NCBI RefSeq assembly: GCF_988242995.1
Contig: NZ_OZ547043.1
Length of the DNA: 64,000 nucleotides
Direction: 5' to 3' (one strand)
Shown here: piece by piece, positions 11,895 to 46,700 of the stretch
Position numbering within the stretch: the stretch's first letter is position 1
Layout of the letters: each line of letters begins with the position of its first letter
Program-made: the position numbers and the translations under genes
The notes under the pieces: model-generated
The model's input: the letters and a program-made list of their open reading frames with translations, nothing else
Database searches by the model: none
What the model was told of the DNA's origin: nothing

Positions 11895-11978
11895 ACCTGA
11901 ATTTACCGCAAAAAAAGCCACGGTATAAACCGTGGCAAAATCCAACATAGCTAAAAATAATCAGGCGAGTGGTATGAC

Positions 11979-34813: not shown

Positions 34814-34890
34814 GCGCCCTTAGCTCAGTTGGATAGAGCAACGACCTTCTAAGTCGTGGGCCGCAGGTTCGAATCCTGCAGGGCGCGCCA
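34814..34890 (+). tRNA. argU: tRNA-Arg (UCU anticodon)
   Basis: 77-nt sequence with acceptor stem GCGCCCU/AGGGCGC, anticodon loop cuUCUaa, T-loop GGTTCGAATCC, 3' CCA; integrase gene immediately downstream. Confidence 0.9.
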
Positions 34891-39013: not shown

Positions 39014-39310
39014 TTATACCTCTGAATCAATATCAACCTGGTGGTGAGCAATGGTTTCAACCATGTACCGGATGTGTTCTGCCATGCGCTCCTGAAACTC
39101 AACATCGTCATCAAACGCACGGGTAATGGCTTTTTTGCTGGCCCCGTGGCGTTGCAAATGATCGATGCATAGCGATTCAAACAGGTGCTGGGGCAGGCCT
39201 TTTTCCATGTCGTCTGCCAGTTCTGCCTCTTTCTCTTCACGGGCGATCTGCTGGTAGTAACGCGCCCAGCTCTGAGCCTCAAGACGATCCTGAATGTAAT
39301 AAGCGTTCAT
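39014..39310 (-). CDS. gam: host RecBCD inhibitor Gam
   Basis: 98-aa ORF matching recalled lambda Gam short form ([17 protein letters not shown]...). Confidence 0.85.
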
Positions 39311-40187: not shown

Positions 40188-40877
40188 CTACCCATGCTTC
40201 CTATATGTCTGCGGCATGCTCCCAATAACCTTACCGAAGATGAACACCCGGTTCATCTCGTCTTTCTCGATCGGGTCCCACGGTGAGTAGCTTTTGTTAT
40301 CAGAGATGACCAGCAGCTTATCCTTCATCATTTGCAGGCGCTTTACATGGGCTGTGTCGTCGTACAGAAACGCATAGATACCATCACCGTCGAAAGATTT
40401 AACTGTGATATCAACGAACAGCAGATCACCTGGTTCGATCGTTCCTGACATGCTGTCACCACGCACGTTAATGATGCGGATATTTTCCGCCTTCCTACCA
40501 TCGAACATGTGACGAGCATCGTCAAACGAGTACTCAACCGAGCGTAGAACTTCTACAAACTCACGGTTGATGACTCCCGGCCCAGCACTGACTTCTATAT
40601 CAAGAACGTCAATCTTGAAGTATTTGGAATGGCTGACAGTTGATTGTATTGGTTGCACTGTACTGTCTGACATATTTCCAACGCCAGAAGATAACCATTC
40701 TGCGCGCACACCCAAAGCGTTCGCGATCTCCACGATTTTAGTTGTTTGATTAGCTTTCCCTGTTTCGATTTTCTGAATAGCAGCCTGGCTAACCCCGACC
40801 AAATCCCCAAGCGCCTTTTGTGTAAGGCCTCGCGCTAATCTGGCTTCTTTAAGTCTTTCTGAGAGTGTTGTTTTCAT
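40188..40877 (-). CDS. cI: prophage repressor (CI-like): N-terminal HTH, C-terminal LexA-type S24 peptidase domain
   Basis: 229 aa from Met MKTTLSERLKEARLARGLTQKALG...; self-cleavage-type GDSM motif; divergent from cro. Confidence 0.8.
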   Translation of the reverse strand: MKTTLSERLKEARLARGLTQKALGDLVGVSQAAIQKIETGKANQTTKIVEIANALGVRAEWLSSGVGNMSDSTVQPIQSTVSHSKYFKIDVLDIEVSAGPGVINREFVEVLRSVEYSFDDARHMFDGRKAENIRIINVRGDSMSGTIEPGDLLFVDITVKSFDGDGIYAFLYDDTAHVKRLQMMKDKLLVISDNKSYSPWDPIEKDEMNRVFIFGKVIGSMPQTYRKHG

Positions 40878-40885
40878 AGTCCAAA

Positions 40886-40943
40886 TGTACAACCAAGGTT
40901 TTATTCCATCAAACGAAAATGGTTGTTGACTAAAAACAACCAT
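40886..40943. promoter_or_regulatory. putative right operator (oR) / pRM-pR region
   Basis: palindromes AACCAAGGTT (40891-40900) and ATGGTTGTT-N7-AACAACCAT (40919-40943) in the 104-bp cI-cro divergent intergenic. Confidence 0.5.
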
Positions 40944-40981: not shown

Positions 40982-41212
40982 ATGAACCCAGCTATCAAAA
41001 CAGCGATCAATATCGTTGGTTCACAAAAGAAACTGGGCGCTGCTTGCGAAGTTTCACAGCAGGCCGTCTATAAGTGGCTTCACAACAAAGCAAAGGTATC
41101 CCCTGAACATGTCGGCAGCATTGTTACGGCTACTGGTGGAGTAGTGAAGGCATACCAGATTCGCCCGGATCTTCCGAAGTTGTTTCCACACACCGAAAAG
41201 AACGCAGCTTAA
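40982..41212 (+). CDS. cro: Cro-like HTH regulator
   Basis: 76-aa ORF with HTH (KKLGAACEVSQQAVYKWL), divergent from cI. Confidence 0.7.
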   Translation: MNPAIKTAINIVGSQKKLGAACEVSQQAVYKWLHNKAKVSPEHVGSIVTATGGVVKAYQIRPDLPKLFPHTEKNAA

Positions 41213-41281: not shown

Positions 41282-41821
41282 ATGCAACCACTTACATACC
41301 AACAGACTAGCGGATTTAGCCCGACTGCGGTGATAAATCGTTCTCAAACAAAACAGGTGCCAGGCCACGAAAAAATCCGTGATGCCGTCCGCGCCTGGTC
41401 GGCTGTAGATAATCAGGATGTCGTTGCCACACTCATTGTGAATGAGTATCGGGAGCAGGGCGGCGGCACCATCGATTTCCCTGATGATGTCAGCCGTGCA
41501 CGCCAGAAGCTGTTCCGCTTCCTCGATAACAAATTCGATTCTGAAAAATACCGAAATAACGTGCGTGAACTGACCCCGGCAATTCTGGCGGTACTACCGC
41601 TGGAATATCGCGGTTACCTGGTTGAGCAGGATAGCTTCATGGCTAGGTTGGCTGAAATGGAAAAGGAACTCAGTGAGGCAAAACAGGCTGTCATTCTCAA
41701 CGCACCACGCCACCAGAAACTGAAGGAAATTAGTGAAGGTATTGTGTCGATGTTTCGTGTGGACCCAGATCTGGCTGGTCCATTGATGGCGATGGTTACT
41801 ACCATGCTGGGGGCGATATGA
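41282..41821 (+). CDS. CII-like regulatory protein (family assignment tentative)
   Basis: 179-aa ORF between cro and O, the position of cII; resembles recalled phage CP76-type proteins. Confidence 0.45.
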   Translation: MQPLTYQQTSGFSPTAVINRSQTKQVPGHEKIRDAVRAWSAVDNQDVVATLIVNEYREQGGGTIDFPDDVSRARQKLFRFLDNKFDSEKYRNNVRELTPAILAVLPLEYRGYLVEQDSFMARLAEMEKELSEAKQAVILNAPRHQKLKEISEGIVSMFRVDPDLAGPLMAMVTTMLGAI

Positions 41822-41907
41822 CAGGTTCAGAAATGGCGAAAGCCGGTCTGCTGGAACAGAACCGACTTTCAGGTGCAAATCGTAACACACTCATTGCGGG
41901 AGGAATT

Positions 41908-42837
41908 ATGGCAAACACTGCTGAGATATTCAATTTTCCAGTGCCGGATGCGGCACAAAAGGAGCCGCGCGTGGCAGATCTCGATGATGGTTATACGCGC
42001 ATTGCAAATGAGTTGCTGGAAGCTGTGATGCTGGCCGGATTAACACAGCACCAGCTTCTGGTCTTTCTGGCTGTCATGCGCAAAACATATGGCTTTAATA
42101 AAAAACTGGATTGGGTTAGCAACGAGCAACTTTCCGAATTAACCGGGATATTGCCGCACAAGTGTTCTGCTGCAAAAAGTGTTCTGGTAAAGCGTGGGAT
42201 TTTTATTCAGAGCGGGCGGAATACCGGCATTAATAATGTGGTCAGTGAATGGTCAACATTACCCGAATCAGGTAAGAGAAATAAAGTTTACCTGAAAGAG
42301 GTAAATTTACCTGAATCAGGTAAAAAAAGTTTACCCAAATCAGGTAAAGGCGTTTACCCGAATCAGGTAAACACAAAAGACAAACTAACAAAAGACAATA
42401 TAAAACCTTTTTCGTCCGAGAATTCTGGCGAATCCTCTGACCAACCAGAAAACGATCTTCCTGTGGTGAAACCGGATGCTGCAATTCAGAGCGGCAGCAA
42501 GTGGGGGACAGCAGAAGACCTGACCGCCGCAGAGTGGATGTTTGACATGGTGAAGACCATCGCGCCATCAGCCAGAAAACCGAATTTTGCAGGGTGGGCT
42601 AACGATATCCGCCTGATGCGTGAACGTGACGGACGTAACCACCGCGACATGTGCGTGCTGTTCCGCTGGGCATGCCAGGACAACTTCTGGTCCGGTAACG
42701 TGCTAAGTCCGGCCAAACTCCGCGACAAGTGGACCCAGCTCGAAATCAACCGAAACAAGCAACAGGCTGGCGTGACAGCCGGCAAACCAAAACTCGACCT
42801 GACGAACACTGACTGGATTTACGGGGTGGAGCTATGA
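41908..42837 (+). CDS. O: replication initiator O
   Basis: lambda O-like N-terminus (..NFPVP..VADLDDGY..) from ATG 41908 with GGGAGG RBS; contains ori iterons; track start 41818 also possible. Confidence 0.8.
   Translation: MANTAEIFNFPVPDAAQKEPRVADLDDGYTRIANELLEAVMLAGLTQHQLLVFLAVMRKTYGFNKKLDWVSNEQLSELTGILPHKCSAAKSVLVKRGIFIQSGRNTGINNVVSEWSTLPESGKRNKVYLKEVNLPESGKKSLPKSGKGVYPNQVNTKDKLTKDNIKPFSSENSGESSDQPENDLPVVKPDAAIQSGSKWGTAEDLTAAEWMFDMVKTIAPSARKPNFAGWANDIRLMRERDGRNHRDMCVLFRWACQDNFWSGNVLSPAKLRDKWTQLEINRNKQQAGVTAGKPKLDLTNTDWIYGVEL
42259..42371. repeat. replication origin iterons inside O
   Basis: five direct repeats of about 19 bp, TTTACC(C/T)GAAtCAGGTAAA, each internally palindromic. Confidence 0.6.
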
Positions 42838-43535
42838 AAAACATCGCCGCACAGATGGTTAACTTTGACTGTGAGCAGATGCGCCGGATCGCCAACAACA
42901 TGCCGGAACAGTACGACGAAAAGCCACAGGTACAGCAGGTAGCGCAGATCATCAACGGTGTGTTCAGCCAGTTACTGGCAACTTTCCCGGCGAGCCTGGC
43001 TAACCGTGACCAGAATGAACTGAACGAAATCCGCCGCCAGTGGGTTCTGGCTTTCCGGGAAAACGGGATCACCACAATGGAACAGGTTAACGCTGGAATG
43101 CGCGTAGCCCGTCGGCAGAATCGACCATTCCTGCCATCACCCGGGCAGTTTGTCGCCTGGTGCCGGGAAGAAGCATCTGTTAACGCCGGGCTGCCAAACG
43201 TCAGCGAGCTGGTTGATATGGTTTACGAGTATTGCCGGAAGCGTGGCCTGTATCCGGATGCAGAGTCTTATCCGTGGAAATCGAACGCGCATTACTGGTT
43301 GGTTACCAACTTGTACCAGAACATGCGGGCCAATGCGCTGACTGACGCGGAATTACGGCGCAAGGCTGCCGATGAACTGACCTGTATGACAGCGCGAATT
43401 AACCGTGGTGAGACGATACCTGAACCAGTAAAACAACTTCCTGTTATGGGCGGTAGACCTCTAAATCGTGCACAGGCTCTGGCGAAGATCGCAGAAATTA
43501 AAGCTAAGTTTGGACTGAAAGGATCGATGAAATAG
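42834..43535 (+). CDS. P: replication protein P (DnaB helicase loader)
   Basis: 233-aa ORF near-identical to recalled lambda P. Confidence 0.9.
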   Translation: MKNIAAQMVNFDCEQMRRIANNMPEQYDEKPQVQQVAQIINGVFSQLLATFPASLANRDQNELNEIRRQWVLAFRENGITTMEQVNAGMRVARRQNRPFLPSPGQFVAWCREEASVNAGLPNVSELVDMVYEYCRKRGLYPDAESYPWKSNAHYWLVTNLYQNMRANALTDAELRRKAADELTCMTARINRGETIPEPVKQLPVMGGRPLNRAQALAKIAEIKAKFGLKGSMK

Positions 43536-43774: not shown

Positions 43775-46700
43775 ATGACCACTGTGAATAAAAAGTTAAA
43801 AAAAACTGCATCTGGCGCGATTACATGGTCAGTAATTGTTACCCAGATATTATCTCCAGTTTCTCTTTCTTTGATTCCGGCAAACAGTTTTGCATCGTCT
43901 GATAATAAAGATGTTACGCAAATTTATGCTAGCGATGAGCGTGCAAATAAAGTGGCCTCATTTGCAGTAAGTGCAGGTCAGAGTCTGGCGAATAATAATG
44001 CAAGTAGTTTTGCTGTAAATACTTTATCAACTCAGGCGACAAAAGAGGTCGTCGATTGGTTGCAACAATATGGCAATGCGCGCATCAAGCTTAATGTCGA
44101 TGATTCTTTTTCCTTGAAGGATTCATCATTCGACTTTTTATATCCATGGCTGGATACTCAGGATTATGTGCTATTCAGTCAGACATCACTACATCGTACT
44201 GATGACCGTAATCAGACCAATATTGGTTTGGGGATTCGTCATTTCACTCCTGATAATGCAATGTTGGGTGCGAATGTTTTCTACGATTATGATTTAAGTC
44301 GCAGCCACTCTCGCGCAGGTTTTGGGGTTGAGTACTGGAGAGATTATTTCAGGTTTGGTGTAAATACCTATTTTGGTTTATCTGACTGGAAGGACAGTCG
44401 GGATATTGATGATTATCTGGAAAGACCCGCAAATGGCTGGGATTTTTCTGCTGAAGGATGGCTACCTGCTTATCCGCAATTAGGGGCATCTATTCAGTTT
44501 GAAAAATATTATGGTAAAAATGTCGGATTATTTGGAAGCGATAATCTGCAGGAAAACCCTTACGCAGTTACTGGGGGAATTTCTTATACACCAGTTCCTC
44601 TGATTAAGTTTTCTGCACAGCATAAGCAAGGACAGAGCAACGTTCACGATACAACCTTTGGTGTTGAGTTTAATTACCGCCCAGGCGTTTCCCTTGCTGA
44701 ACAGCTTAGCAGTGACAATGTTGCAGTTATGCGAGAAGTCCAGAACCGGCGTTATGATTTTGTTGAACGAAATAACAACATTGTTCTGGAGTACAAGAAG
44801 AAGCATGCACTGAAAATCAGCTTACCAGAGTCTGTTCAGGGGGATGGCGAATCAATCATCCCTGTAACACTGACAATCAACAATGCCAGTGGTGGTATCA
44901 AGTCTGTACAGTGGAATGATAGTGTATTCACTGCGGCTGGCGGTAAGATCAGTGGAAATGGCACATCATGGCAGGTCACTTTACCGGCTTATAAAAGCGA
45001 AGGTGTAAATTCGTGGAATGTTGGAGCCACGGTCCAGGATAATAGAGGCAACGTTTCCAACTATGCGGTGATGAATATTAGCGTTATTAATAGTGGTGTC
45101 TCGACAGCGGATTCTTCTTTTATGTTGGATGGAGATTCATCTCCGACGATCTCTGCTGATGGTCAATCCACTCATCCAATAGTATTAAGCCTGAAAGACA
45201 GTAACGGTAAGGCATTAACCGGACTGGCTGATGACATTGAAATGTCAGTGGAATTTACTGCGGATAGCAATAGTGCTCGACAGCGTGAAACGGTAACTGC
45301 CCCGTCATTAGGCGCGGTAGAGGAAATCTCTGCTGGTGTATATCGCTCTGTTCTGACTGCTGGTTCGCAGGCTGGCACAGTACGTGTAACAGCAAAAGTT
45401 CAGGGAAAAACCTTTACTTTGAATATTAAGCAGGCAGCCGTTATTGATAGTGATGTCTCGACAGCGGATTCTTCTTTTACGTTGGATGGTGATTCGTCTC
45501 CGACGATCTCTGCTGATGGTCAATCCACTCATCCAATAGTATTAAGCCTGAAAGACAGTAACGGTAAGGCATTAACCGGACTGGCTGATGACATTGAAAT
45601 GTCAGTGGAATTTACTGCGGATAGCAATAATGCTCGACAGCGTGAAACGGTAACTGCCCCGTCATTAGGCGCGGTAGAGGAAATCTCTGCTGGTGTATAT
45701 CGCTCTGTTCTGACTGCTGGTTCGCAGGCTGGTACGGTACGTGTAACTGCAAAAGTAATGGATAAAACATTTACTCTCAGTATTAAGCAAACAGCAGCAA
45801 CAGAACCTGATTCTGAGGTCAGTGCTGTTTTAACCGCTGCACCAGCAGAACAGGTAGTTGGTTACAATATCAATCTACAACTGGCAGTGAAGGATTCACA
45901 AGGAAATGCAATCACTGGTGATAACACTCTGAGCTTTTATGCTCTTAACCAGGCAGAAGGAGTCGAGTTTGGGGCAGTAACGGAAAAAGACGGTGTCTAT
46001 AGCGCGACAGTAACTTCAAAACGAGCTGGTAAGATTCGGATCGGTGTTAAATCGGGTAGTCACAATTTCTCAGGTATTGAGAAAGAAATCTCCTTTATTG
46101 AAGATCGAACACAGTTCGCATTCTCTCGTATTGAAGCCAGTAAAAATAATGCATTGGCTGACGGCAAACAAAAGAATACGGTGACTGTAAGCCTTGCAGA
46201 TCGTTTCGGCAATGTTGTGCCCGGTTATGCTGTTACGCTGTCCTTACCTGCGGGGGTAACTCAAGTTGGTGGTGAACATGCTGTGTCAACTGACGAAAAC
46301 GGTAATGCTGTTTTTGCGTTAATAAGCTCCACTCCGGGTTCTTACGTGATTAAAGCTCATGCTGGTTCTCAGATGTCTACTGAGTTAACAGTAACCTTTG
46401 CATCAAATATGATCGGAGCTTCACTGTCACTGACGCCTGGAAACAGTAGCTTAATTTCCAATATTCCTGCTAATGGTAAGGATGCTGCGGTATTGAATGT
46501 GCAACTGACAAATACGAATGCGTCGGTCAATGGACAGAAGATTCAGCTCATCACCTCATCTGAAGGATTGTCTGTACCGACAAATATCGTGACTGATTCA
46601 ACAGGGCATGTTTCCGTACCACTTACAACGGTGAGAGCTGGTGAGTATACGGTGGCTGCACGAGTGACTGACGGTTCCCATAGTGTGGAGTCTGGCAGCG

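Follow-up and report, generated by a model that had tools for sequence, protein, structure and literature searches.

The gene for the replication initiator O in a lambdoid prophage contains a cluster of short palindromes in its middle, and the question raised by this locus is whether they constitute a replication origin of the lambda type and, if so, which initiator specificity that origin has. The DNA analysed is a stretch of 64,000 bp (hereafter the window) from contig NZ_OZ547043.1 of RefSeq assembly GCF_988242995.1; the features of the origin region are listed in Table 1.

Iterons, AT-rich element and the O gene

Repeat finding at 42.2-42.4 kb revealed five dyad-symmetric 19-bp repeats with the consensus TTTACCYGAATCAGGTAAA, occupying window positions 42258-42371 and all located within the O ORF. 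The five palindromic iterons that an earlier note had described in the O gene were thus recovered: each copy is an internal palindrome in which 7 to 9 of the 9 arm positions pair. When up to three mismatches were allowed, the consensus matched these five iterons only, at this one place in the whole 64-kb window; no match was obtained in 100 dinucleotide-preserving shuffles, and the chance expectation was 0. The start-to-start spacing is 29, 19, 24 and 23 bp, so that the spacing of about 23 bp given earlier holds as an average but is not uniform. Iterons 1 and 2, with imperfect ends or a variant centre, may be weakly bound by O. The array also folds strongly as single-stranded DNA (z=-6.1); a cruciform mechanism was discounted on this point, because five copies of one palindrome give such stability trivially.

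Table 1. Features of the origin region in the window. Iteron centres are counted from the ACAAAAGAC anchor of the AT-rich element.
Feature	Position	Strand	Sequence	Remarks
Hairpin, possible terminator	41837-41871	-		RNA fold z=-2.85; downstream of the pO-like promoter; weak U-tract
pO-like promoter site	41905-41933	-	TTGAAT, 17 bp, TG-CATAAT	Overlaps O start codon; position of lambda pO (oop promoter)
O gene, replication initiator, 309 aa	41908-42837	+		Probable true extent; Pfam Phage_rep_O E=1e-33
O N-terminal DNA-binding domain coding region	41968-42255	+		Predicted winged helix, specificity part; Pfam, AlphaFold
Iteron 1	42258-42276		ATTACCCGAATCAGGTAAG	Distal extra copy; centred -106
Iteron 2	42287-42305		TTTACCTGAAAGAGGTAAA	Variant centre; centred -77 (lambda iteron 1: -78)
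Iteron 3	42306-42324		TTTACCTGAATCAGGTAAA	Perfect palindrome; centred -58, as lambda iteron 2
Iteron 4	42330-42348		TTTACCCAAATCAGGTAAA	Centred -34, as lambda iteron 3
Iteron 5	42353-42371		TTTACCCGAATCAGGTAAA	Centred -11, as lambda iteron 4
AT-rich A-skewed element, presumed DNA-unwinding region	42372-42412	+		41 bp, 24% GC
Imperfect inverted repeat	42414-42441		GTCCGAG...CTCTGAC	Right origin edge; nearly identical to lambda's
O C-terminal coding region	42500-42834	+		98% identical to lambda O
P gene, helicase loader	42834-43535	+		Pfam Phage_lambda_P E=8e-62; 97% identical to lambda P (BLASTP)

The adjacent AT-rich element that the earlier note had proposed to look for was found directly to the right of iteron 5. 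Its top strand is A-rich, with an AT skew of up to 0.71, and it opens with the tandem motif ACAAAAGAC(A); the motif is common to lambda, 933W, P22, HK97, SEN34, PhiR12_2 and GZ7, and the anchor is present in 9 O genes. The element is homologous to that of lambda, aligning with lambda positions 39121-39160 (CACAAAAGACAAACTAACAAAAGACAATATAAAACC in the window versus CACAAAAGACACTATTACAAAAGAAAAAAGAAAAGA in lambda), and is followed by the segment GAGAATTCTGGCGAATCCTCTGACC in the window as in lambda. Nucleotide homology to lambda/933W and to SfI sets in with the final base of iteron 5, at 42371 (query position 554). To the left of this point it is the phasing of the iterons that agrees with lambda; P22 and the final four iterons of 933W share the 20/24/23 phasing, and SEN34 shows 24/23. 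The lambda-type arrangement claimed previously was supported in each of its parts, with an O homologue followed by a P homologue, and with iterons that lie within O and show lambda phasing and dyad symmetry.

In relatives, O is usually annotated as a 339-aa protein starting at 41818, so that it overlaps the ydaT-like stop, and both lengths, 309 aa and 339 aa, are contained in public databases. A strong Shine-Dalgarno sequence (GGGAGG) and the ATG at 41908 align with the starts of lambda O and of phi80 gene 15. The start at 41818 is probably an over-extension, and the true start is probably at 41908. The Pfam Phage_rep_O match covers residues 51-145 of the 339-aa ORF; in the numbering of the 309-aa protein its last residue is 115. 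AlphaFold predicted an N-terminal domain of four helices followed by two strands at residues about 30-118 (pLDDT 70-87), disorder at residues 119-198 (pLDDT <50) and helices in the C-terminal part at residues 202-286, in a model built on a shallow alignment of 9 sequences with a mean pLDDT of 57. The iterons, which encode residues 117-155, therefore fall within a Phage_rep_O-family gene after the part for the DNA-binding domain and before that for the C-terminal domain; an origin would be tolerated there because the protein segment concerned is a predicted unstructured linker joining the two O domains. Comparison of the O model with the PDB by Foldseek gave non-significant matches alone (E>=0.04), mostly winged-helix regulators and no more than weakly consistent with such a fold, and a search of solved structures with the O sequence gave no match at E<=1. 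A minus-strand ORF at 42242-42568 (108 aa) was set aside as a mechanical ORF without supporting evidence.

A scan for promoters and terminators returned sites no more numerous than in shuffles, and the pO-like site alone was retained from it, on the strength of a position shared with lambda and phi80 in the alignment. In phi80 an oop homologue (M3 RNA) is annotated in the same gap. Together with the hairpin, the pO-like site tentatively points to an antisense RNA of the oop kind within the 87 bp that separate O from the cII analogue; this candidate had no Rfam match.

Prophage context and distribution

The element that carries the origin is a lambdoid prophage located by tRNA-Arg (34814-34887) and intD, at the DLP12 attachment site of E. 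coli. At gathering thresholds, Rfam gave no match in the O region, and in the rest of the window only the tRNA-Arg and the STnc480 sRNA at 11906-11972 (11.9 kb). STnc480 and the sfm/fimZ fimbrial genes, further upstream of tRNA-Arg/intD, represent chromosomal context. Recombination, lysis and terminase genes are also present in the prophage, and we take its late genes to be DLP12/82-like.

Upstream of O are genes for an S24/HTH CI-type repressor, a YdaS-type Cro analogue and a YdaT-type protein. The YdaS- and YdaT-type proteins at the Cro and CII positions (40982-41212 and 41282-41821) carry the Pfam label 'toxins'. YdaS and YdaT have been argued to be Cro and CII analogues (PMC8630535), and the YdaT-type protein of the window is 66% identical to phi80 CII, a likeness that fits Cro and CII analogues rather than a toxin-antitoxin pair. 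A 25-bp inverted repeat with a perfect stem, ATGGTTGTTGACTAAAAACAACCAT, with TTGACT, was found at 40919-40943; its sequence is unrelated to the iterons. It overlaps the far 5′ end of the listed 251-aa repressor ORF (40188-40943), and with a more internal repressor start, as in the shorter CDS (690 nt) of a RefSeq relative, it would instead fall between cI and cro. This repeat is probably an operator with a pR element. Just downstream of P, at 43775-47683, is a 3.9-kb gene for a 1302-aa inverse autotransporter (intimin/invasin-like, with repeated Ig-like domains). Since related phages have ren, an SMR transporter gene and ybcK at this position, the inverse autotransporter gene is considered a large cargo gene of the nin region.

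The 211-bp origin segment, at least 80% covered, was found in 2403 of 5426 complete E. coli genomes (about 44%), and single genomes carry it at as many as five places. Fifteen sequenced Escherichia phages contain an O gene match of 97-99% identity (PhiR34_1, 4A7, Lambda_4C10, Perceval, Turner and others), several of them recorded with a laboratory E. coli strain as host, and the origin type therefore occurs in sequenced phages. The O protein cluster has 7825 members, named just "replication protein". In E. coli MSB2_1A (NZ_LR890410.1; 897-1784 of the locus) one 23-bp iteron unit is lost and four remain, O is frameshifted, and the locus adjoins IS elements; it looks like an iteron-to-iteron deletion in a decaying prophage. 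The record of Escherichia phage D2 (OM475427.1; 301-1322 of the locus) has an O N-domain of the window type for the first ~320 nt and is then 100% lambda, lambda iterons included, and O is divided between two CDS. The record is chimeric, and reflects either faulty assembly or a recombination event that left the initiator broken and mismatched.

Origin, peptide repeat or operator

Read from 41908, iterons 1, 3 and 4 encode LPESGK, LPESGK and LPKSGK, and iterons 2 and 5, which are in another reading frame, encode VYLKEV and VYPNQV. The repeated LPESGK peptide previously attributed to the repeats is hence a property of copies 1, 3 and 4 but not of copies 2 and 5, and this use of two frames marks the repeat as a signal at the DNA level rather than a repeated peptide. 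Conservation was determined in 80 IMG/VR relatives with N-domains 83-100% identical, of which the 60 distinct sequences were aligned with MAFFT; columns were counted in this alignment, as an ungapped column comparison of the loci is distorted by 3-bp indels. All 80 relatives have five iterons at identical positions, with the spacing conserved. One of them, UViG_2910596823_000013, carries in addition a sixth copy, TTACCTGAAAGAGGTAA, whose centre is at -125, 19 bp to the left of iteron 1, and iteron number therefore varies within the origin type. Among the 60 distinct relatives, 4 of 50 columns (8%) are variable in the TTACC/GGTAA arms, compared with 47%, 39% and 90% at N-domain codon positions 1, 2 and 3 (Fisher p versus arms 4e-7, 3e-5 and 6e-25) and 68% in the inter-iteron spacers (p 3e-7). 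Compared with Klebsiella phage GZ7, the window has an N-domain DNA identity of 77%, and of only 54% at third codon positions; the arms are identical at 49/50 positions, including 14/14 third-codon positions. Thus the arms are the most constrained nucleotides of the segment, although they code for a predicted unstructured linker, and they are under purifying selection at the DNA level.

These data bear directly on the possibility that the repeats are merely a low-complexity or tandem LPESGK peptide in the O linker, selected as protein or drifting, with no role as DNA. Such a peptide would agree with the LP(E/K)SGK encoded by three copies and with the predicted disorder of the linker, but it leaves two of the five copies in the wrong frame, and does not account for third-codon positions kept in full between E. 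coli and Klebsiella phages, nor for arms more conserved than codon positions 1 and 2 of the folded domain; neither the dyad symmetry nor the lambda-identical phasing can be explained at the protein level. We regard this alternative, which is extremely improbable, as effectively refuted. The same two frames, arm conservation and spacing kept in 80/80 relatives exclude the case that the earlier note itself had named as fatal to its claim, namely low-complexity coding sequence lacking conserved spacing or dyad symmetry. Alternatively, the palindromes could be operators of a transcription regulator, either a CI/Cro-type repressor or O in a purely autoregulatory role, and not iterons. Dyad-symmetric sites of 19 bp are operator-like, and a CI-like repressor and the Cro-like YdaS are encoded ~1.3 kb upstream. 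However, the motif is absent from the cI-cro intergenic region as well as from the rest of the 64 kb, and the sites track the type of O N-domain and not the immunity region: GZ7 has the same iterons with its immunity annotated differently (a 66-aa CII versus a 179-aa YdaT-like protein). Their position and phasing are moreover those of the experimentally defined O-binding iterons of lambda, and we consider an operator function very improbable.

A further alternative accepts the array as a genuine origin by descent, which would be inactive in this chromosome since the prophage is defective. The prophage occupies the DLP12 site, which in K-12 holds a relative that is defective, it has the inverse-autotransporter gene of 3.9 kb at the ren position, and the relative in MSB2_1A lacks one iteron and has a frameshifted O. 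Against this, O, P, the five iterons and the AT-rich element are all intact and 99% identical to those of phage PhiR34_1, and genes for recombination, lysis and packaging by terminase have been retained. Inactivity for this reason seems to us unlikely.

We therefore favour, with a probability of about 90%, the reading that the array is the origin of a lambdoid prophage, built like ori-lambda with a different initiator and iteron specificity, in which O binding and firing are putative. O binding, unwinding, helicase loading and origin firing we infer from lambda. O dimers would bind the five 19-bp iterons via their N-terminal winged-helix domains, each TTACC/GGTAA arm being contacted by one O monomer, and the four AT-proximal, lambda-phased iterons would assemble a bent nucleoprotein complex (the O-some). 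This complex would destabilise the adjacent A-rich element; the lambda-like C-terminal part of O would recruit P-DnaB, as the corresponding part of lambda O does, and host chaperones would then release DnaB, whereupon bidirectional replication would start.

Specificity type and comparison with known systems

Comparison of ten O genes gave seven palindromic iteron types at the same positions, each paired with its own type of N-domain. The iteron is ATCCCTCAAAACGAGGGA in lambda and 933W, TGTCACCAAAACGGTGACA in PhiR12_2, TTAGC-N7-GCTAA in HK97 and SEN34, TTTACC-N5-GGTAAA in P22, TTCCCGAAAACGGGAA in phi80, and TTACC-N7-GGTAA in the window and GZ7. The earlier note had taken a difference from the lambda iteron to imply a distinct specificity, and had proposed comparison with lambda and phi80; the window type differs from the iterons of both. 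The locus is a lambda-type origin with a predicted initiator/iteron specificity of its own, since its iterons are unrelated to those of lambda and its N-domain is 49% identical, while the C-terminal part (98%) and P (97%) hardly differ from lambda's. Membership of the rep-lambda specificity group (lambda, 434, 933W, DE3) was ruled out by the dissimilar iterons and an N-domain identity of 48-49%; of the P22 gene-18 group by a 7-bp and not 5-bp spacer between the same hexamers and an N-domain identity of 60%; and of the phi80 gene-15 group, with 21-bp spacing, by sequence and spacing and an N-domain identity of 42%. Of the 80 IMG/VR loci, 60 combine the window-type N-domain and iterons with a lambda-type right side, and the other 20 with a different C-terminal domain. 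This conforms to the classical view of an N-domain and its iterons as one specificity module, which appears to recombine at the AT-rich element.

For phage 82, no origin record was present among the phage matches, and the searchable literature on ori82 yielded nothing usable. Moore et al. reportedly published the ori82 iteron sequence in 1981 (Gene 14:91), and ori82 is said to have five repeats; if it is identical, the origin type of the window was already described in that year.

P22 and the window have the same arms and the same centres, with 5 versus 7 bp between the arms, and on this ground a change in half-site spacing, rather than new base contacts, may partly account for shifts of origin specificity within this O subfamily. 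Non-cross-activating replicons could in that case arise after very few mutations. The distal iteron 1, 29 bp from iteron 2 and at a non-lambda position, may be regulatory or stabilising like iterons 1' and 1'' of the Stx phages, and not part of the core. With the origin type in about 44% of complete E. coli genomes, inducing one prophage might fire co-resident origins of the same type. The combination of these three proposals is speculative, and we think it rather doubtful that it holds as a whole.

The array marks the origin, and the likely true initiator start, of one of the commonest prophage replication modules of E. coli, and supplies a defined 19-bp putative recognition sequence for the O protein. 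Iterons were not annotated in the relatives' records examined, and the searchable literature gave no instance of the iteron sequence. It may be of use in prophage annotation, in predicting cross-activation or interference of co-resident prophages, and for non-cross-reacting replicons of the lambda-dv type. It adds one more specificity type to a textbook origin architecture, is abundant and unsurprising, and leaves the understanding of lambdoid replication unchanged.

The closest model is ori-lambda, in which four O-binding iterons at 39034-39118 have been experimentally defined. Like the origin of the window, it is located inside O between the N- and C-terminal domains and has dyad iterons of 18-19 bp; the AT-rich element and the right-hand palindrome are homologous, and the centres of the four proximal iterons match. 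The two differ in iteron sequence (ATCCCTCAAAACGAGGGA versus the unrelated TTTACCYGAATCAGGTAAA), in iteron number (four versus five) and in the O N-domain (only 49% identical), and an A-tract is found at the iteron junctions in the window but in the iteron centre in lambda.

The Stx phages 933W and P27 have six lambda-type iterons, and the extra iterons of P27 bind O weakly yet are required for replication (PMC7466680). As in the window, these origins extend beyond the four lambda-equivalent iterons with additional copies on the left. They have the lambda iteron sequence, with the extra copies centred -97 and -117, whereas the window has a single extra copy of another type at -106; by analogy, iteron 1 of the window may have a similar auxiliary role.

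By its N-domain, the closest classical phage is P22 (gene 18, 60% identity), whose origin is also inside the initiator gene. The P22 iterons (1481-1567 of the locus) and window positions 42306-42371 have the same arms, TTTACC/GGTAAA, the same centres (-58, -34 and -11) and the same anchor. P22 differs in having 5 and not 7 bp between the arms, four copies, and a different C-terminal domain, and its partner is a DnaB-type helicase (gene 12), in contrast to P in the window. Five iterons with the window spacing of 29/19/24/23 are found in the Klebsiella phages GZ7 and KO-TP1 and in 15 Escherichia phages, with N-domains 83-100% identical to that of the window; GZ7, at 83%, has iteron 1 at the same position. 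In the GZ7-type phages, however, the module is followed by another kind of O C-terminal domain and by a loader of the DnaC/DnaI type.

More distantly, the iteron origins of plasmids (F RepE, pSC101 RepA, R6K pi) likewise combine a winged-helix initiator, repeated sites and an adjacent AT-rich element. Plasmid iterons are direct repeats, bound by monomers and located outside the rep gene together with DnaA boxes, whereas those of the window are palindromes, putatively bound by dimers, inside the initiator gene itself.
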